This document shows positions 5,867 through 52,394 of a DNA stretch of 57,763 nt, piece by piece. The notes beneath the pieces are model-generated. The model did not search any database. It saw nothing but the letters and a program-made list of their open reading frames with translations, and was not told the origin of the DNA. This DNA is from Candidatus Moraniibacteriota bacterium (GTDB taxonomy: Bacteria > Patescibacteriota > Minisyncoccia > Moranbacterales > UBA1568), in contig JBPOHW010000014.1 in NCBI GenBank assembly GCA_052035095.1, positions 1 through 57,763 of the forward strand, written 5' to 3'. A program made the translations under genes and the position numbers. Position 1 is the first letter of the stretch; each line of letters opens with the position of its first letter.

Positions 5867-7945
<2,079 letters not shown>

Positions 7946-20202: not shown

Positions 20203-22692
20203 TCAAACGACGAAGTTCACCAATCGATCCGGAACAAATATCACCTTCCGAACTACTGCATTAGCAAGGTACTTCTTCACCGACTCTTCTTCCTGCGCCA
20301 TTCGCTCAACATCTTCTTGCGACGAACCCGCGAGCACGCGAAGCCGTGCGCGGAGCTTGCCGTTGACCTGTATCACCACTTCCGCCATTTCTTCTTTGAG
20401 AAATTTGGAATTGGCTTTGGGCCAACGTTCCAGCATAATGGATGCTTTGTTTCCTTGCAAACTCCACAATTCCTCGGCAATATGCGGCGCAAAGGGCGAA
20501 AGGAGAATGAGTAGAGTTTCAAAATCTTCTCTCGCAACCGATTCCGCCTTTTCCATTTCATTTACAAAAATCATGAGCGCCGAAATCGCCGTATTGAATC
20601 GCATCCCCTCGATATCTTCGCTTACTTTTTTAATGGTCTTATGCAAGAGGGCATTCAGCTTTCCGCTCTCAGCTTTCGGGTTTCGACCGCTGACGACTGA
20701 CTGCTGATCGCTGATTGCCGGCGCAAGCCTCCATACCTTCTCCAAAAACCGCCGCATCCCGACAACACCGTCCGTATTCCACGACACGCTCTGCGAAAAC
20801 GGTCCCAGAAACATTTCGTAGAGCCGGAGCGCGTCCGCGCCGAAGCGCCGAACCATATCGTCCGGATTCACCACATTGCCCCAGCGCTTCGACATCTTGC
20901 GTCCGTCGGACGCCATGATAAGCCCCACATGGGCAAGTCGCTTGAAGGGCTCCTTCGTCGAGACAACACTGATATCATAGAGAAACTTGTGCCAAAATCG
21001 CGCGTAGAGCAAATGCCGCGTCGCATGCTCCGCGCCACCCACATAGAGATCAACCGGCATCCATTCCTTCTCTTTCTTGGGATTAATGAGTTTTTTGGAA
21101 TTGTTTGGATCAATATACCGGAGATAATACCAGCTCGATCCCGCCCACTGCGGCATCGTATTGTTCTCGCGCCGCGCCGCGCCGCCACAGACGGGACATT
21201 TCGTCTTCACCCACTTTTCAATGCTTGCCAAAGGCGACTCCCCCGTCCCCGTCGGCTCATACGACTTCACTTCCGGCAACTTCAAGGGCAACTCCTTCTC
21301 CGGCACCGGCACCCATCCACACGATTCACATTTCATGAGCGGGATCGGTTCGCCCCAATATCTCTGCCGCGAAAACACCCAGTCCCGCAACTTGTAATTC
21401 ACTTGTTTCTTGCCGAGCTTCCTCTTCATCAACCACGCTGTCATTTTCTCCCGCGCCTCTTGGGATGAAAGCCCCGTAAATTCTCCGGAATTTACCAAAA
21501 TACCATCCTCAACAAATGCCTCCATGTTTTCCGCCTGATTCTTTATTCCTGATTCTTCATTCACCCCAACCGACTGCCGCACTGACACATCATACTTCTT
21601 CGCAAATGCAAAGTCTCGTTCATCATGCGCCGGCACTGCCATCACCGCGCCCGTCCCATAATTCCCCAGTACATAATCCGCCACATAGATTGGCACTGAT
21701 TCTCCGGTAAACGGATTCACCGCCTCGACGCCCTCCAACCTCACGCCGGTCTTTTCCCTGCTCGCATCATTTCTCTCCTGCTCCGTCTTTTTCTTCGTTG
21801 ACTCAATGTATTTCCTCACCTCCTCGGAATTGGAAATTGAAAATTGATCATTGAAAATTAACTGGTGTTCCGGCGCCACCACCACATAGGTGCACCCAAA
21901 AATCGTATCCACTCTCGTAGTGAAGACTTCGATAAAATCTTGAGAATTTTGAATTTGAGAATTATTTGGAAATTGGTTATTGGAAATTGGAAATTTTATC
22001 AATGTTCCCTCCGATCGCCCGATCCAATTCCGCTGTTGTTCCTTGATAGACTCACTCCAGTCGAGTTGCTCCGCATCGAGATCATGGAGCAATCGATCGG
22101 CATAGGCGGTCATCCGGATCACCCACTGGCGGAGAGGTTTCTTCTCGATTTCGCTTCCGCACACTTCGCATTTTCCATCCTCTAAGTCTTCGTTGGCAAG
22201 ACCCGTCTGACATGTGGGGCACCAATTGATCGGTTCCTCGGATTCATACACCAGTCCCTTTTTGAAAAGCTGCAAAAATATCCATTGTGTCCATCGATAA
22301 TATTCGGGATCAGTCGTATTAATCTCACGATCCCAGTCGTAGGTAAAACCAAGATTTGAAAGTTGTTTCTTGAAGTTGGCAATATTTTTTCGGACAGAGA
22401 TTCTCGGGTGTGTCTTGCTCTTTATTGCAAAGCGTTCAGCCGGAAGACCAAAAGCATCCCATCCCATCGGGTGAAGCACACTATATCCTTCGAGTTGTTT
22501 CTTCCGCGCCACGACATCGGTTGCGATATAGCCCTTGGGATGCCCCACATGAAGCCCCGCCCCCGACGGGTATGGAAACATATCGAGCGCATAAAACTTT
22601 TTCGCCCGATCATACTGCTTATAGATTTTCTTCGTCTCCCACTCCTTCTGCCACTTCGGCTCTATTTTCTTCGGATCGTATTTCGCATGCAT
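20203..22692 (-). CDS. leuS: Leucine--tRNA ligase
   Basis: Motifs MFPYPSGAGLHVGH, GWDAFGLPAE, EVFTTRVDT, KMSKR and VIQVNGKLR. Confidence 0.98.
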   Translation of the reverse strand: MHAKYDPKKIEPKWQKEWETKKIYKQYDRAKKFYALDMFPYPSGAGLHVGHPKGYIATDVVARKKQLEGYSVLHPMGWDAFGLPAERFAIKSKTHPRISVRKNIANFKKQLSNLGFTYDWDREINTTDPEYYRWTQWIFLQLFKKGLVYESEEPINWCPTCQTGLANEDLEDGKCEVCGSEIEKKPLRQWVIRMTAYADRLLHDLDAEQLDWSESIKEQQRNWIGRSEGTLIKFPISNNQFPNNSQIQNSQDFIEVFTTRVDTIFGCTYVVVAPEHQLIFNDQFSISNSEEVRKYIESTKKKTEQERNDASREKTGVRLEGVEAVNPFTGESVPIYVADYVLGNYGTGAVMAVPAHDERDFAFAKKYDVSVRQSVGVNEESGIKNQAENMEAFVEDGILVNSGEFTGLSSQEAREKMTAWLMKRKLGKKQVNYKLRDWVFSRQRYWGEPIPLMKCESCGWVPVPEKELPLKLPEVKSYEPTGTGESPLASIEKWVKTKCPVCGGAARRENNTMPQWAGSSWYYLRYIDPNNSKKLINPKKEKEWMPVDLYVGGAEHATRHLLYARFWHKFLYDISVVSTKEPFKRLAHVGLIMASDGRKMSKRWGNVVNPDDMVRRFGADALRLYEMFLGPFSQSVSWNTDGVVGMRRFLEKVWRLAPAISDQQSVVSGRNPKAESGKLNALLHKTIKKVSEDIEGMRFNTAISALMIFVNEMEKAESVAREDFETLLILLSPFAPHIAEELWSLQGNKASIMLERWPKANSKFLKEEMAEVVIQVNGKLRARLRVLAGSSQEDVERMAQEEESVKKYLANAVVRKVIFVPDRLVNFVV

Positions 22693-42274: not shown

Positions 42275-45196
42275 TTATACTCGTTTCAACTGAAAACTAA
42301 ACTTCTCTCCTTCAATATTCACCTCTTCCGAATATTCGGCATCGTTCAGTTCTCCCGCGCCGTATGTCGTCGCGAGCACCTCTTTCGCGATCATCTCGCC
42401 AAATGTTTCGAAAACATTCTCCTTTCCGGAATATCCGAGCACTATTCGGTCTTCCACACTGAACCCCGCCTTCTTACGTCCTTCTTGTATCACGCGAATG
42501 ATTTCCCGCGCCTCGCCTTCGAGTCGGAGTTCGGGAGTAATGTCAGTATCGAGAACGATATCCTCCGACAAAGACGCATCAATTATCACTCGCTTCATAT
42601 TCAATTCCTCGCAAATAATCTCCAAGAAATCTTTGCTTAATTCCTGATTCTTAATTCTTGATTCTCCAAGCGGTTGTCTCACCTTTATTTTCGCCTCCGC
42701 TCGTTTCTGCAATCCGATCGTCACAATTTCTCGAACAGCTTTCATATTTCTATTCAACACCTCATCAATCAACTTCTCATCCGCCACCGGAAAATCCGCC
42801 AAATGCACCGACGACTCACCGGTCAAATTCCGATATATTTCTTCCGCGAGAAACGGCGTGAAGGGCGCCATGAGTTTCGAGAGCGTTACCAAGACGTCGC
42901 GCAATGTCTGATACGCCTGTTCTTTATCGGTGTCGTTTTCATTCTTCCAAAACCGCTTCCGACTTCGGCGAATATACCAATTGGAGAGATGATCGATAAA
43001 CGGCGCAAACGCGCGCGCGGCGCGATTGAGCTCGTAAGATTCCATTGCTCCGTTTACTTCCCCGATAAGAAGTTGGAGTTCCGAAATAATCCACCGGTCA
43101 AGCAAATTTTTCGAAGACTCCTGTCCTTTCTTTGGCTCCCAATTATCGATACTCGTGTACATCACGAAGAACGAATATGAGTTCCAGAGCATTCGGAAAA
43201 CATTCCGCTCCAGTTCGGACACTTCCTTTTCGGAAAAATTCAGGTTTTCCGCCGCGACAACCGGTGACGAAAGAAGATAGAGCCGCACGACATCCGCGCC
43301 GTACTTGTCAAACATGAGCATTGGATCGGGATAATTCTTGAGCTTCTTCGACATTTTCTTGCCATCCTCAGCAAGGACGATGCCATTTACAATGACATGC
43401 TGATACGCCGACTTCTCCTTGAGAGCGGTTGCAATGATATGGAGATAGTAGAACCAACAGCGAGTCTGATCGACGCCCTCGGCAATAAACTGCGCCGGAA
43501 ATCCCGCATCAAACTTTTCCGTTTTTTCGAACGGGTAGTGCATTTGCGCATACGGCATCGACCCGGAATCAAACCATGTATCGAGCACATCCGGCACGCG
43601 ATGCATCGTTCCTCCGCATTTCTCACACGACACCGTAATCGCATCTACAACATGTTTATGCAGATCATTAATTTTTTCCCCACTCGCTTCTTCCAATTCT
43701 TTCGCCGATCCAAATACTTTCATCTCGCCGCATTCGCACTTCCATATCGGCATCACACTCGCCCAATATCGCTGGCGACTGATAGACCAATCCCGCGCGC
43801 CTTCGAGCCATTTGCCGAAGCGCCCCTCCTTGATGTGAGTCGGTACCCACTCAATATCTCGCGCGAGCTCGAGTGCTCTTTCTTTGATCGCCGACACTTT
43901 CACAAACCATGAGCTCGTCGCGTAATGAAGAAGCGGCGTATCGCACCGCCAACAGTGTGGATAGCTGTGCTCGAATTTTTCTTTCGAAAAAAGCAAATTC
44001 TTTTTCGCCAAGTATTTGATAATTTCAACATCCGTCGCCTGCGGATTTTCCAAAGGTTTCACCGAAAGTCCAGCCAACTCCTTCACCTCTCCCTTGATAA
44101 TTCCGTCCATACCCACATGCTGGACAAACGGCAGGTTTTCTTTCTTCCCCAGCTCCATATCATCCTCCCCAAACGCCGGCGCAATATGCACCACCCCCGT
44201 CCCCTCCTCCGTATTCACAAACTCCGCCGCGTATATTTTCCAGCCATTCTCGCGATTTTCCAAGCTTTCATTTTTGAAATATGAATCGAATGGCGGAAGA
44301 TATTTTTTTCCCACCAAATCAGCCCCATCAATATCCCCTTCTCCAGAGAAACTCATTTTTGAACCAACTTTCTCCAAAGCTTTTGGTAATATGTTCTGAC
44401 TGTATTCTTTTTGAGTAATGTATACACCGATATCTTCTCCGTCCTTCTTTATTCTTAATTTTTCATACTTTATGCCTGCACCGACCGCTAAAGCCACATT
44501 CCCTGGCAGTGTCCACGGCGTCGTCGTCCACGCAAGAACAAATGTTCCCGGTTCATCAACGAGTTCAAACTTTGCCACAACCGACAAGTCCTTCACCTCT
44601 TTGTATCCCTCGGCGACTTCCGACTGCGAGAGCGTCGTCTCACACCGCGGGCAAATATGCATCGAACGATAGCCCTCATAGATAAGTCCCTTATCCCAGA
44701 GTTCTTTGAATACCCACCAGACAGATTCCATAAAATCCCGATCCATCGTCCGGTACGCGTGTTCCATATCCGCCCATCGTCCGACGCGGCGAATCACTTT
44801 CTTCCATTCATCCACATATTGAAGCACCGTCGAACGACAAAACTCGTTGAACTTTTCAACGCCAAGTGCCTCGATATCTTTCTTGCGCGATATGCCGAGC
44901 GCCTTCTCGGCAATGTTTTCGATCGGAAGCCCATGGCAATCCCATCCCCACCTCCGTTCCACCTGAAACCCGCGCATCGTCCAATACCGCGGCACGGCAT
45001 CCTTCATCACACTCGCTACAATATGTCCGTAGTGCGGCGTCCCCGTCGCAAAGGGCGGTCCGTCATAGAAACTATACCGCTTCGCCCCCTCGCGATCCGC
45101 GACCGACCGCTCAAACACTTTCTCCCGCTCCCAATACTCCAAAATTTCCTCCTCCATCTTGGGCAAATTCATTTTCGCATCAATTTTTTTGAACAT
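42275..45196 (-). CDS. ileS: Isoleucine--tRNA ligase, type 2
   Basis: Motifs FYDGPPFATGTPHYGH, GWDCHGLPIE, AWTTTPWTLP, EGVDQTR and KMSKKLKNY. Confidence 0.98.
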   Translation of the reverse strand: MFKKIDAKMNLPKMEEEILEYWEREKVFERSVADREGAKRYSFYDGPPFATGTPHYGHIVASVMKDAVPRYWTMRGFQVERRWGWDCHGLPIENIAEKALGISRKKDIEALGVEKFNEFCRSTVLQYVDEWKKVIRRVGRWADMEHAYRTMDRDFMESVWWVFKELWDKGLIYEGYRSMHICPRCETTLSQSEVAEGYKEVKDLSVVAKFELVDEPGTFVLAWTTTPWTLPGNVALAVGAGIKYEKLRIKKDGEDIGVYITQKEYSQNILPKALEKVGSKMSFSGEGDIDGADLVGKKYLPPFDSYFKNESLENRENGWKIYAAEFVNTEEGTGVVHIAPAFGEDDMELGKKENLPFVQHVGMDGIIKGEVKELAGLSVKPLENPQATDVEIIKYLAKKNLLFSKEKFEHSYPHCWRCDTPLLHYATSSWFVKVSAIKERALELARDIEWVPTHIKEGRFGKWLEGARDWSISRQRYWASVMPIWKCECGEMKVFGSAKELEEASGEKINDLHKHVVDAITVSCEKCGGTMHRVPDVLDTWFDSGSMPYAQMHYPFEKTEKFDAGFPAQFIAEGVDQTRCWFYYLHIIATALKEKSAYQHVIVNGIVLAEDGKKMSKKLKNYPDPMLMFDKYGADVVRLYLLSSPVVAAENLNFSEKEVSELERNVFRMLWNSYSFFVMYTSIDNWEPKKGQESSKNLLDRWIISELQLLIGEVNGAMESYELNRAARAFAPFIDHLSNWYIRRSRKRFWKNENDTDKEQAYQTLRDVLVTLSKLMAPFTPFLAEEIYRNLTGESSVHLADFPVADEKLIDEVLNRNMKAVREIVTIGLQKRAEAKIKVRQPLGESRIKNQELSKDFLEIICEELNMKRVIIDASLSEDIVLDTDITPELRLEGEAREIIRVIQEGRKKAGFSVEDRIVLGYSGKENVFETFGEMIAKEVLATTYGAGELNDAEYSEEVNIEGEKFSFQLKRV

Positions 45197-45253
45197 AGGA
45201 AAAATGTTAAACAATTGTCTTCAAAAATATTTTTCAGCGAAGATCATTTTGAT

Positions 45254-45871
45254 TTATCGCTCTTCCGCCGAGACTACTCGACCATTCTCCAATCGCACAA
45301 ACCCCTGTTCCCGAAGAAGTTTCGCTTCAAACGACTCCTCTTGTCGACGTCTCTCTTCTTGAAGGTGGAACCGATCGCGCGCGGGAAGTGTCCGTTCCTC
45401 ATTCATTTTTGCAAGAAGCGACTTCTGCAATCGATCAAACAAAAAATTCAATTCCTTGCACCGAAGCTTCAACTGAATCACCGCCGGCAACCGTGTATCA
45501 AGCGGATAAAACGGCAGAGCCTCAATATTAAATCCCCTTCCACCCCTTTCTCCCATTACTCCCTTTATCTCCAAAAGCTCCGGATACATTCCCTTCCATA
45601 TATCATCGCAGTCCTCCTCCAGTTCCGCGTTCGCCCCCATCGAGAATCCCAGAAAATCATAGTATTCCTTGCTCGAATTCCGCTTCCACCCCTCGACAAT
45701 GTTCTGTTTCACCGAACGAGCCGAACGGTCCATTTGATCGGCAAGCGCCACCAACGTCTTCGTTTTTGGGAAATGGTGCGTCAATTCCGAACACGACTTC
45801 TGCAACGCCTCCGATTTTTTGTAGACAAGGAGTTCGCGATAGCCATACAGTTTTCTGGACGGTTTTATCAT
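45254..45871 (-). CDS. Four-helix-bundle (23S rRNA intervening-sequence protein family) protein
   Basis: Y..L.VY.K...QM.RSARSV..NI.EG..R.S.KEY..FL..S.G...EL. Confidence 0.9.
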   Translation of the reverse strand: MIKPSRKLYGYRELLVYKKSEALQKSCSELTHHFPKTKTLVALADQMDRSARSVKQNIVEGWKRNSSKEYYDFLGFSMGANAELEEDCDDIWKGMYPELLEIKGVMGERGGRGFNIEALPFYPLDTRLPAVIQLKLRCKELNFLFDRLQKSLLAKMNEERTLPARDRFHLQEERRRQEESFEAKLLREQGFVRLENGRVVSAEER

Positions 45872-45916
45872 ACAAAGGGGAAAATGGGTAAAAAGGGAGA
45901 AAAAGGATTGAAAGAA

Positions 45917-46119
45917 ACAAAAAAATCCTCAACACAAAACAGTGTGCCAAGGACGTCCGGAAACCGAAACGTGGTACCACCTTGCTTTCCCCGAACACGA
46001 TTTCGAGGCTTCATTCTCGCTGTTACGGGCTCGCCCGTCGGGGTCTACCGATACGATCGGCTTCGCGCCAACCGAATGTTCTTCCCGAAGCTCCGAGGTG
46101 ATCGCCTCTTCATAGCCGC
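45917..46119 (-). promoter_or_regulatory. Ile T-box riboswitch with ultrashort stem I and terminator
   Basis: AUC specifier at 46100-46102, GGUAGA...GCCCGUAA stem II, AAGGUGGUACCACG T-box, and a hairpin with U tract at 45917-45952. Confidence 0.88.
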
Positions 46120-46573
46120 TACTCGGACGATACCAAATCTTCCCGCAAAGGGCAACCTCCCGCCGCCTCTGGACAACTTTCGAAAATTTTGTAAAATGAC
46201 AATATTCTTTAACAAAGAGGCATCCAACATGGTCACAAGAAACCTTGTGAGGAATATGTATGGACTCGGCGGAGCAAGACAAGCGAGAAGGCGGGCACTC
46301 ATTCAAGAAAGCGAACGAAGAAGAGCTGAGGAATTCTCATTCTCCCCTTTTGGGGATTGTTCCCACAACGATATAAAAAAAGAAGATAGTCAACCAGTCC
46401 ACGCTGAAAAATAGATGTGGAGCTATTTTTTTGTTTTTCAAAACTTTAGGAGACTGCTCAGTGAAAAAACCTTCTCCACTCCTTATTGTTCTCTGTGCCT
46501 TTCCCATGGTCGGAAATATGAAAGGAAGACATCGCCCGCCCATCCGTGGCGAATATCGTGAAGGAAAGCGCAG

Positions 46574-46830
46574 GATAGGAAGGGGATTCTGTCTTGCCGG
46601 TTCCAAACGGAGGTGATGCATTGACACCGAACGCCGAGAAAACGCAAAAATTTCATCCTGTTCGTATCACAAGGGGCTCCAGGGAGATTCCCGCCGATTG
46701 CCCCGATGATTCAAGACAGGAGGGTAGCACTCCCCTCCGCATACTTCCCAACGGAAAAGTGGAGACCCGCCCTATCACTCGTAGGTAAAACCAAACACCG
46801 CCCGTTGCAACCGCGACGGGCTTTTCTTTT
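46574..46830 (+). ncRNA. Unidentified ~200-nt structured RNA candidate with terminator
   Basis: Nested helices GATAGG/CCTATC, GGGGA/TCCCC and CTGTCTTG/CAAGACAG. Terminator hairpin with U tract at 46800-46830. Confidence 0.45.
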
Positions 46831-47610: not shown

Positions 47611-49278
47611 TCACATCCGCTCCGGCGCGGAGATGCCGAGGAGTCGAAGCGTCTCGGCGAGCACGGTTTTCGTCGCGCGAACAAGCGCGAGACGCGAACG
47701 AGTCGTTTCTTTTTGTTCCACATCGATCACCGTACATTCATCGTAGAAAGAATGAAAACAATCGGCGAGACGAATCGCGTACTGCGGCAATTGATGCACG
47801 GTAAGCGTCTCCGCCGCCTCCTCAACTACCTCCGGAAACTTCGCCAAGTGCCGCACCAAAAGCAGCTCCTTCTGATTCTTCAGAATGATCTCTTCTTGCT
47901 TGATTCCTAATTCCTGATTCTTTATTCCTAATTCTTCTTCTGCCTTCCGCAGTATACTCGCCATCCGCGCGTGCGCGTATTGAACATAGAAGACCGGGTT
48001 TTTCCGCGATCGCTCTTCCGCGAGCCCCAAATCAAAGTTCATATGCGTATCGGAGGAGTACATCAGAAAGAAAAACCGCGCGACATCAACCGGAATCGTT
48101 TCCAGGAGTTCATCGACCGAAACGACATTGCCCGCGCGCTTGCTCATGCGCACTTCTTGTCCGTCCTTCACCAATCGCACCAGTTGAACGAGAATGAAGT
48201 TCACGTTTTCTTTCGTAAAACCAAATGCCTCCGCCGCCGCCCGAAACCGCTCAACATACCCATGGTGATCCGCGCCCCATATTTCGATAAGTTTTTCGAA
48301 GCCGCGCTCCTTCTTGTGAAGAATATATCCACAGTCCGACGCGAAATACGTTTTTTCACCGTTCGCTTTGACGAGCACGCGATCTTTGCCATCACCGAAA
48401 GCGGTTGTCTTGAGCCAGAGCGCCTCTTCCGCCTCGTACGTTAATTTTTTTTCTCTGAAAAACGCAATCGCCCGATCAATATATCCCAGCTCAACGATAT
48501 CCTTCTTTTCCGACACAAACCGATCGAACGAAATGTTCATCTTCTCCGAAATCGTTTTCTTGATATATTCCTCCAAAACTTTTTCCCCCGCCCACTCACC
48601 TGCTTGCGCGGCTTTCGGCTTTCCGCTTTCGGCTTTCTGTTCATTGCCGACTGCCGATTGCTGATAGCCGATAGCAAGTTTCTCTATATATTCCCCTCCG
48701 TACACCGCCTCGCTATCCTTGAGCACACTGTGTCCCAATTTCATCACCTGCTCCCCCGCGTCATTCACGTAGTATTCAGTCGAGACAGCGTACCCCGCTT
48801 TCTTCAAAATATTCGCGAGCGCGTCCCCCAAAAATCCCCCGCGCGCATTCCCGATATGGAGGGGTCCAGTCGGGTTCGCGGAAATGTATTCGAGAAGAAT
48901 CGTGTGATGCGGCGCTTTCTCCTTTGAAAAACCGTACTCAACTCCCTGCTCGCGGATTGTCGTAACGATATTCGCGAGCGTCTCCTCGGTATACGAAAAA
49001 TTGAGATACCCGAGAGCGACCACCTCAATATGAAACGATTTCATGCTCTCGTCGCTCGACAATTTTTCCTTCAAAAGATTCGCGATGTCCATGGGCGGCT
49101 TTTTCACCATCCGCGCGAGCGCCATCGCGATATTGGTCGTATAGTCCCCATGCGCTTCGTCCTTCGGGAAACCCACTTCAATATTCGGACAAAGGATCAT
49201 TTCACCCAACAAAAAATCCCCGTCCTTTTGGCAGGCGTCTATACACCGTCGCAGCGCGTGTCGTATCACTTCTTTCAT
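47611..49278 (-). CDS. argS: Arginine--tRNA ligase
   Basis: Motifs EYISANPTGPLHIGNARG, GADHHGY, MSKRAG and YVQYAHAR. Confidence 0.98.
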   Translation of the reverse strand: MKEVIRHALRRCIDACQKDGDFLLGEMILCPNIEVGFPKDEAHGDYTTNIAMALARMVKKPPMDIANLLKEKLSSDESMKSFHIEVVALGYLNFSYTEETLANIVTTIREQGVEYGFSKEKAPHHTILLEYISANPTGPLHIGNARGGFLGDALANILKKAGYAVSTEYYVNDAGEQVMKLGHSVLKDSEAVYGGEYIEKLAIGYQQSAVGNEQKAESGKPKAAQAGEWAGEKVLEEYIKKTISEKMNISFDRFVSEKKDIVELGYIDRAIAFFREKKLTYEAEEALWLKTTAFGDGKDRVLVKANGEKTYFASDCGYILHKKERGFEKLIEIWGADHHGYVERFRAAAEAFGFTKENVNFILVQLVRLVKDGQEVRMSKRAGNVVSVDELLETIPVDVARFFFLMYSSDTHMNFDLGLAEERSRKNPVFYVQYAHARMASILRKAEEELGIKNQELGIKQEEIILKNQKELLLVRHLAKFPEVVEEAAETLTVHQLPQYAIRLADCFHSFYDECTVIDVEQKETTRSRLALVRATKTVLAETLRLLGISAPERM

Positions 49279-51413: not shown

Positions 51414-51572
51414 TTGCCAGCTATCAGTCGTCAGCTTTCTGCTTTCGGCGATAGATACGTTTTTATCGCAAAGGCTGAAGGCCTATAGCCGACAGCTGAA
51501 AGCCGCGTAAGCAGAGGAATAATTTTTTTCGCCAACAGCCGAAAGCCGAAAGCTGACAGCTGAAAGCCGCGA
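51414..51572. repeat. Inverted 7-nt-period arrays (GCTATCA/GCTTTCG vs GCCGAAA/GCTGACA)
   Basis: One left arm and two right arms that can pair into a long hairpin. A related array lies at 52347-52386. Confidence 0.8.
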
Positions 51573-52329: not shown

Positions 52330-52394
52330 ATCCTTTAAGACTGTATGCCAAACGCTGACAGCCGAACGCTGACAGCCGAACGCTGTGAAACACT

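Follow-up and report, generated by a model that had tools for sequence, protein, structure and literature searches.

A repeat-armed PF05635 gene between the isoleucine T-box and ileS of a Moranbacteria-like bacterium

The 57.8 kb stretch of DNA analysed here (the window) comes from a Moranbacteria-like bacterium of the Candidate Phyla Radiation (CPR) and carries, on its minus strand, a gene for a four-helix-bundle protein of the PF05635 family together with two tandem repeat arrays. We show that this locus is a "repeat-armed" passenger cassette resembling an intervening sequence (IVS), in which a PF05635 gene and its leader, a pyrimidine array, have been inserted between the terminator of an isoleucine (Ile) T-box and ileS. 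Since the insert lies between the T-box terminator and the ileS start, the cassette is transcribed only on T-box read-through. As read from the alignment of homologues, the second array, rich in purines, is shown to be a permanent, length-variable, in-frame part of the gene.

The comparison set consists of 46 related loci, an alignment of 30 full-length homologues, and a survey of 80 ileS loci for empty sites. Tandem arrays were called with Tandem Repeats Finder (TRF), and their repeat unit is WWWGGGRNN (R, purine) or its complement (Y, pyrimidine), with a mode period of 9. What is said below about the function of the cassette is inferred throughout.

The insert in the ileS leader

The four-helix-bundle gene (45254-45871, 205 codons) belongs, by its Pfam and TIGR02436 profiles and its fold model, to a long, CPR-restricted subfamily of PF05635/TIGR02436. 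Its leader is a Y nonamer array with four C-tracts (45874-45906; TRF period 9, 3.6 copies, 79% matches) that ends 3 nt before the ATG, while the R nonamer array (45534-45572; TRF 45549-45572, period 9, 2.5 copies) lies in frame within the gene and encodes EIKGVMGERGGRGF in the loop between helices alpha3 and alpha4. In the closest IleS relatives, at loci L047 (78% identity) and L048, the T-box terminator runs straight into the ileS ATG. Compared with these empty sites, the window has an insert of ~707 nt (45197-45903, boundaries within a few bases by junction comparison) composed of the Y array, the gene, and a 57-nt tail. The junctions read ...caatccct/ATG(ileS) in L047 and ...caatcct/(insert)...tttttcct/ATG(ileS) in the window, with TCCT or CCCT at both ends of the insert, which begins with the Y array.

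The IleS tree groups the window with L047 as its sister (trio support 100) and requires a minimum of two changes to account for where the gene is present. Related wastewater contigs also have the ileS start joined to the T-box terminator. At L001-L008 the gene again lies upstream of ileS, and behind a T-box as in the window in L002, L003, L005, L007, and L008, and the subfamily as a whole occupies at least ten genomic contexts, mostly co-directional with its neighbors. An earlier reading made from the sequence alone (the sequence-only reading) had proposed that the gene and its periodic inverted arms form a mobile or RNA-processed cassette. The empty sites, the tree, and the range of contexts bear out the part of this proposal that makes the gene with its leader array an insert; movement by means of the arrays and processing of the RNA are weighed below, and both appear improbable.

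Upstream, the T-box/ileS operon begins with a 33-nt block (TTGTTAAAGAATATTGTCATTTTACAAAAT, 46183-46215) that is promoter-like in position and sequence and is 94-97% identical in L001, L047, and L048; the remaining spacer is not alignable. The Ile T-box leader itself (46122 down to 45946, that is 45946-46122 on the minus strand) has an ultrashort stem I whose terminal loop, CGAUCA, holds the AUC specifier. Its match to Rfam RF00230 covers the full model (1-219) at 44.5 bits (E = 4.5e-8), which is below the gathering score of 93, and the only gathering-level Rfam match in the window is the transfer-messenger RNA (tmRNA). Direct reading of the leader sequence shows the GGUGGUACCAC box, AUC in the loop of stem I, and the overlapping terminator, and a comparable Ile T-box leader precedes the four-helix-bundle gene or ileS in relatives. 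A terminator scan places the intrinsic terminator at 45915-45954, with a 12-pair stem and a U tract, and according to the RF00230 alignment the 5' arm of this terminator shares sequence with the antiterminator's 3' strand. The T-box-regulated host gene ileS (42275-45196) was taken from the list of open reading frames (ORFs), with tRNA-synt_1 (Pfam) assigned in the gene tables of strain variants, and most likely starts with the ATG at 45196; in tblastn, relatives align to the longest ORF from its residue 7 onward. The four-helix-bundle gene has as its neighbors a histidine phosphatase gene (His_Phos_1), the T-box, and ileS, with no other ORF between His_Phos_1 and ileS.

Two further observations concern this junction. 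A 48-codon frame (45868-46014, minus strand), probably fortuitous, runs from the T-box interior through the terminator into the Y array (…NPFSPFLPIFPFV) and ends where the four-helix-bundle gene starts, the two overlapping by ATGA. Among the strain variants L127-L132, two ~98%-identical sublineages have 57 additional nt at 45914-45922, placed between the U tract of the terminator and the Y array; a 9-nt direct repeat, TTTTGTTTC, stands on either side of this segment. In these sublineages the ORF as predicted by gene callers takes in the Y array, giving products of 227 and 237 aa.

The gene is one of several occupants of this site. Other passengers found between T-box and ileS are a Nudix-like protein, a HIT protein, a small membrane protein, a 380-aa protein, a canonical PF05635 protein, and hairpin elements without an ORF. 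Read from these loci, the leader from T-box to ATG is a passenger hot spot in the clade. The Nudix-like and HIT passengers (L049:1975-2501 and L052:1975-2489) start with a copy of the first 9-10 ileS codons (MSFKKVDAK..., MTSRKIDSKKEF...), and insertion there seems, from these copies, to have duplicated the ileS translation start. The canonical PF05635 gene, at L057, encodes 125 aa and has as its arms ATTGATG heptamers, not nonamers; these arms, of 15 nt each (2058-2072 and 2421-2435), show 87% complementarity, and the one on the 3' side falls within the coding sequence (CDS) of the gene itself. Relatives' genomes also use tandem-repeat arms for ordinary RNA hairpins, as in the variable region of T-box stem III, which is built of inverted heptamer arrays at L007:3850-3935, L008:3850-3940, and L002:3790-3860 (examples being (GTATTTT)n ... 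(TACTAAA)n and (GGTAACT)n ... (TAATTAC)n).

The protein scores 64.1 bits against PF05635 (cut-off 33.8) and 58.6 bits against TIGR02436 (cut-off 24), and the match spans residues 12-86 only, because the loop insert interrupts it. Its AlphaFold2 model (mean predicted local distance difference test, pLDDT, 85.6) has four core helices followed by an extra helix (164-188) and a beta hairpin, both absent from the canonical family, and the array-encoded loop between alpha3 and alpha4 takes up residues 93-129 at a pLDDT of ~70. The structural relation to Avd, the accessory protein of diversity-generating retroelements (DGRs), that the sequence-only reading had stated for this family holds for the model, as do relations to XCC0516 (2GSC) and BT_0352 (2RLD): target-normalised Foldseek TM scores are 0.87-0.89 for 2GSC, 0.81-0.87 for 2RLD, and 0.75-0.80 for DGR Avd, the last at 8-10% sequence identity, and a PDB profile search finds 2GSC at E = 1.9e-6. 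XCC0516 is a pentameric toroid (PMC4990558), and no pentamer is known in this fold group besides those of XCC0516, BT_0352, and Avd.

In the alignment of homologues, the N-terminal 100 and C-terminal 95 residues are highly conserved and enclose a length-hypervariable insert between ...YPELMGIKG and ...DIEKLxFYPL, with gene lengths from 609 to 810 nt. This insert always begins (V/I)MGE(K/R)G, continues as (G-x-K/M/R)n and, in most relatives, goes on as (N-P-L/F)n, which is an R array followed by a Y array, both translated in frame. Homologues outside the species are at most 70% identical. The subfamily comprises 43 clusters at E <= 1e-30 among 1.84 billion representatives, and no second copy was found in the window.

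Nonamer arrays across the subfamily

In all relatives, arrays of the unit lie within ~300 nt of the gene, be it in the leader, the protein loops, the C-terminal tail, the sequence after the stop, or a loop of a neighboring gene. The sequence-only reading had expected arrays to be more frequent near this gene than near others, and they are: with one simple detector applied to 33 homologous loci, we count 2.4 arrays/kb within 300 nt of the gene and 0.025/kb in the remaining 203 kb (p = 1.6e-72), a rate ~100-fold above that of the remainder of the loci. The enrichment is also seen in the non-coding flanks alone (2.0 arrays/kb, p = 5e-36), and the mode spacing is 9 for G-tracts and C-tracts alike. 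Every locus (34/34) has an R array and at least one Y array, in positions that differ. The Y array is placed directly before the ATG, just after an internal R array, or after the stop and directly before the ATG of the next gene. It abuts the ATG in 13 of the 34 relatives and has 2-6 CCC tracts (mode 4), ending 3-17 nt before the four-helix-bundle ATG or 4-8 nt before that of the next gene.

The unit persists over large distances. Homologues from Saccharibacteria and Berkelbacteria (L041-L045), at 29-35% identity, are without the loop insert, yet R and Y arrays stand in their flanks, and GEKG-type C-terminal tails occur among them. In two Kaiserbacteria (L032 and L035) an R array is found in frame in the N-terminal loop of the neighboring glyceraldehyde-3-phosphate dehydrogenase (GAPDH) gene, ~70-110 nt past the four-helix-bundle stop, where it is translated as …RGKMGGTGE… and …EKRGETGERG…. 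Codon choice shows what is being retained in translated arrays. The codon before glycine ends in G in 75% of cases inside arrays and 26% outside, and lysine is encoded by AAG in 59% and 30%, respectively; therefore the G-tract, not the peptide, is what is kept, and selection on the arrays acts at the nucleotide level. A collagen-like function of the (G-x-y) repeats was set aside because of this codon bias and because the distant homologues have no loop insert.

Individual loci illustrate how varied the arrays are. At L015:905-1175 an R array of ~250 nt (~28 units) lies upstream of the gene, and at L038:4680-4755 eight perfect ATGGGAGAA copies encode a (GEM)8 C-terminal tail, which by their perfection suggests recent slippage. 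At L023:3785-3985, and likewise in L024, upstream R and Y arrays flank ~16 copies of the unrelated heptamer ACAGAAT/ACAAAAT, one repeat family thus sitting in the loop of a hairpin built by another.

One explanation for such arrays is that they are incidental, slippage-prone G-tract repeats that expand wherever they are tolerated, in leaders, loops, and tails, with pairing as a by-product of the shared unit and no function with the protein. The generic pairing without covariation described below would be consistent with this, as would the fast turnover seen behind one and the same upstream gene, where the array is of the R type in L010 and of the Y type in L012, and both types occur in L020. 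The perfect copies in L038 point the same way, a similar tract occurs in a hypervariable loop of GyrB, and repeats that form G-quadruplexes (G4), prefer four units, and stand upstream of ORFs on the antisense strand have been published without a linked protein (PMC4692102). A neutral unit should drift, however, and this one remains tied to a single gene subfamily even where protein identity falls to 29%; in L057 the unit of the nearby subfamily is a different one. Nor would incidental repeats be expected to show the ~100-fold concentration within 300 nt of the gene, or a complementary array in every locus. We consider this explanation a serious one but unlikely.

An alternative treats the arrays as DNA-level mobility or recombination sites, the cassette moving by array-mediated recombination and leaving solitary arrays, such as one in gyrB, as footprints of excision. 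Presence and absence of the gene at one site among close relatives, the many contexts of the subfamily, and TCCT/CCCT on both sides of the insert would all suit such movement; in L006 Y arrays in direct orientation flank the gene and could mediate its deletion, and duplex strength is strand-symmetric, as expected for DNA. However, the loci lack a recombinase and a clear target duplication, and near-identical copies do not occur at separate sites. Outside the species, homologues reach 70% identity at most. No leftover nonamer array was found at the empty T-box-ileS sites among the 80 ileS loci, and solitary nonamer arrays elsewhere are very rare, with five weak cases in 203 kb. The gyrB tract (6179-6203, minus strand), a solitary R-type nonamer tract placed by sequence reading and GyrB domain assignment between the Toprim and C-terminal domains, lies in a coding loop where the cassette could never have sat. 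This loop is length-hypervariable in CPR GyrB, differs in the nearest relative, and bears no trace of a cassette in relatives. We give array-mediated movement little chance of being correct.

The sequence-only reading had further taken the many arm-only arrays of the window, that in gyrB among them, as footprints of the cassette, and this idea is not supported. The gyrB tract is the only further nonamer-unit array in the window, which makes three in 57.8 kb; the others are mostly heptamers of unrelated units, inside or next to the aminoacyl-tRNA synthetase genes leuS, argS, and ileS. One heptamer unit, RGAATYA, occurs in frame at 42636-42665 (ileS), 47903-47934 (argS), and 21534-21562 (leuS) and gives the similar peptides IKNQEL, GIKNQELGIK, and GIKNQAE. 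The ileS tract was considered as an insertion and rejected, as it aligns to orthologues without an indel; it replaces residues, and ESRIKNQEL is identical at the matching position in the distant IleS of L008. A second flavor, AGCCGAA / GCTGACA, is found at 20685-20714, 48609-48675, 51537-51569, and 52347-52385, in leuS and argS (with the peptide KAESGK in both) and also in intergenic sequence near the tmRNA.

Pairing of the arrays and proposed control of the gene

On the minus-strand RNA, 45877-45906 is complementary to 45543-45572 with 24 of 30 positions paired, including three G.U, exactly as the sequence-only reading had counted. The duplex energy is -27.4 kcal/mol, and the best ungapped register reaches 26 of 30 pairs. 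The stem does enclose the start and ~100 codons, as had also been stated, the ATG at 45871 lying inside it and the R arm at codons 100-110. The description of the gene as bracketed by its arms needs correcting: one array is the 5' leader, the other is inside the gene in the alpha3-alpha4 loop, and there is none after the stop codon, with the result that the 24-26/30 stem encloses codons 1-100 only and not the whole ORF. The Y-R helix closes both the minimum free energy and the centroid folds of the 406-nt 5' region. Pairing of at least 24/30 has a probability of 0.012 against shuffled CDS, 6 of 382 equal-sized stretches of the window reach 24, and the duplex energy between 5' untranslated region and CDS ranks 2nd among 43 genes.

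The R array has a competing structure. A canonical G-quadruplex motif, (G3+N5-6)x4, is present at 45534-45564 (CDS nt 308-338) and at the matching site in 23 of the 30 homologues. In G4-aware folding the isolated R array is predicted to form a G4, and adding the Y array turns the prediction into a duplex.

Our preferred reading is that the arrays are the cis partner of a ring-forming protein and make the cassette a self-limiting, autoregulated passenger cistron; we rate the chances of this whole explanation as about even. In it the arrays would serve as the cis-acting nucleic-acid partner of the four-helix-bundle protein, whose structural relatives are pentameric toroids, and they probably control its translation. 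For most genes of the window the leader is T-rich and a Shine-Dalgarno sequence is missing, and therefore the Y array can act as an initiation region. With its 4-5 units, it would be the U/C-rich, Shine-Dalgarno-less initiation region of the four-helix-bundle gene or, in some relatives, of the next cistron instead. This region could be closed in two ways, with the R array pairing to it, here in the 24-26/30 stem that spans codons 1-100, or with the protein wrapping its repeats in the manner of TRAP on GAG repeats. The R array would escape pairing by folding into a G-quadruplex, and the net outcome would be a passenger cistron that limits itself within the host operon. We propose that the protein recognizes the unit because this is the only economical explanation we see for a unit that stays constant while arrays turn over.

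Several results count against this reading and temper our confidence in it. The fold of the whole region is not significant (z = -1.58). Locus-specific co-evolution of the arms was looked for and rejected, with cognate pairs at -34.1 and non-cognate pairs at -33.8 kcal/mol (p = 0.33) and no covariation. Strand-specific, RNA-only pairing through an excess of G.U gave no signal, the sense duplex being stabler in 15 of 28 loci (p = 0.46), and in 98%-identical strains a T>C change in the Y array breaks one pair and is uncompensated. With neither a cognate advantage nor a strand bias, and with this uncompensated change, complementarity is therefore a property of the unit and not of a co-evolving helix. 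Y-R pairing is generic to the unit, not locus-specific, and the Y array of the window pairs on average at 24.8/30 positions with the coding sequences of the 33 relatives. The arrays have anywhere from 3 to ~28 units (L015) or more, and therefore they are not fixed to any oligomer size. Metatranscriptome coverage of the gene amounts to two low-depth contigs, 45365-45515 and 45332-45537. Finally, conservation of the unit could come in part from repeated exchange of arrays rather than from recognition by the protein. A change of array copy number between strains was also considered and set aside, array lengths being identical in the 98%-identical variants.

The metatranscriptome contigs bear on another explanation, in which the stem is an RNase III processing site like that of a 23S IVS, with the passenger mRNA cut from the ileS transcript, the four-helix-bundle message destroyed, and the 5' end of the ileS mRNA processed. 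Both contigs end just 3' of the R array on the mRNA. In the Coxiella IVS, the same gene family lies within a 28-bp stem, has tandem heptamers before its ATG, and is cut by RNase III in that stem (PMC4990558), and duplexes of -20 to -50 kcal/mol are possible in all loci. However, the contig ends are at a depth of 2-3, and one library spans the array. The stem has 4-6 mismatches in 30 and lies partly within the gene's own coding sequence, and in many relatives both arms are inside the CDS; cleavage would therefore always kill the message. Processing of this kind seems to us improbable.

A separate side observation from the metatranscriptome lies upstream of the operon. A 577-nt contig (run X26) matches 46221-46797 with zero mismatches at a depth of 26.8, compared with 2-4 for the flanking genes. 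This stretch, between the His_Phos terminator and the ileS promoter block, has no ORF of at least 100 aa and no Rfam match at E <= 1, and it is ~91% identical in strains whose coding regions are 98% identical. We regard it as a candidate abundant non-coding RNA, which may lie on either strand.

An extension of the preferred reading, which we think very improbable, is that the arrays also arise under the influence of the four-helix-bundle protein, an Avd-like ring seeding and expanding its cognate unit in any DNA within a few hundred bases of the gene. It may do so together with a polymerase or reverse transcriptase of the host, acting in cis, or through stabilization of slipped G4 or hairpin intermediates. 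If true, this would explain why arrays are found in the leader, both loops, the tail, and loops of neighboring housekeeping genes (GAPDH in L032/L035, perhaps gyrB), and why reading frames survive intact with the 9-nt period. On this view each PF05635 subfamily would be a "repeat writer" with a unit of its own, and intervening sequences in rRNA would represent one result of such writing.

Relation to known systems and meaning for the family

The nearest parallel to the cassette is the IVS of Coxiella burnetii 23S rRNA with its S23p ORF (PMC4990558). Both contain a PF05635 gene with short tandem repeats directly before the ATG, complementary sequences that can close a stem around the ORF or part of it, a poor or absent Shine-Dalgarno sequence, and a position in a transcribed host region. 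They differ in their repeats, three or four heptamers before the Coxiella ORF (PMC4990558) versus four nonamer units ending 3 nt before the ATG in the window, and in their stem, which in Coxiella is 28 bp with one mismatch and here is imperfect (24-26/30) with one arm translated in frame. They also differ in host: 23S intervening sequences reside in rRNA helix 25 or 45, whereas the element described here sits in an mRNA leader, between the Ile T-box terminator and ileS, and not in a 23S rRNA helix. Full-text literature searches by family names found no description of repeat-armed PF05635 cassettes outside rRNA.

The repeats themselves resemble the G4-forming heptamer repeats GGGNATC of Xanthomonas and Nostoc (Rehm et al. 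2015, PMC4692102). These are also G-tract tandems of mostly ~four units, frequently arranged as convergent (inverted) pairs between co-directional ORFs, with the G-rich strand antisense and within 50 bp upstream of an ORF, and competition between G4 and hairpin has been discussed for them (PMC4692102). The R array of the window has at least four G3 tracts with 1-7-nt loops, its G4 being predicted from sequence. In contrast to the GGGNATC heptamers, which are intergenic and genome-wide, the arrays described here have a period of 9, are confined to the vicinity of one gene subfamily, and are routinely found in frame in coding loops.

Avd of DGRs (PDB 4DWL, 8UBE; PMC10053308) has the four-helix-bundle fold in common with this protein; it forms a nucleic-acid-associated ring of five subunits and works in cis on a repeat pair close by. 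Unlike Avd, the window gene has no flanking reverse transcriptase or pair of template and variable repeats among its neighboring genes, and its product carries the extra C-terminal helix and hairpin. A further comparison, of mechanism only, can be made with TRAP of Bacillus, a protein of unrelated fold. TRAP is a ring-shaped homo-oligomer that wraps short, regularly spaced repeats in a leader or over a ribosome-binding region and thereby controls the downstream cistron; its repeats are GAG triplets with 2-3-nt spacers, and binding to them is experimentally established, whereas binding of the arrays by the four-helix-bundle protein is proposed. The T-box has parallels in Actinobacteria, whose ileS T-boxes have an ultrashort stem I with the AUC specifier in its short terminal loop, stand upstream of ileS, and act by sequestering the Shine-Dalgarno sequence. 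In the window the expression platform is instead an intrinsic terminator, and a passenger gene stands between riboswitch and ileS.

What is particular to this locus is the nonamer G-tract unit, the arms in frame in the protein's own loops, the retention of the unit across very distant homologues, and residence in a T-box leader. PF05635 (S23p, "IVS protein", related to Avd) has been an orphan for ~30 years, and, apart from the Coxiella IVS and DGR Avd, the searched literature has almost nothing to say about it. The subfamily described here offers an unusually clean pairing of protein and repeat, with a unit that is kept even at 29% protein identity and arrays that turn over in number, place, and orientation, and it supplies concrete candidate ligands for the protein: the R array, the Y array, their duplex, and the G4. 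It also indicates that repeat arms can be translated within a protein, as (G-x-K/M/R)n and (N-P-L)n loops, and that the leader between a riboswitch and a start codon can be a safe harbor for passenger genes. Should the protein prove to bind the arrays, a link of rRNA intervening sequences with operon-embedded cassettes and bacterial G4 repeats could be put to experimental test.

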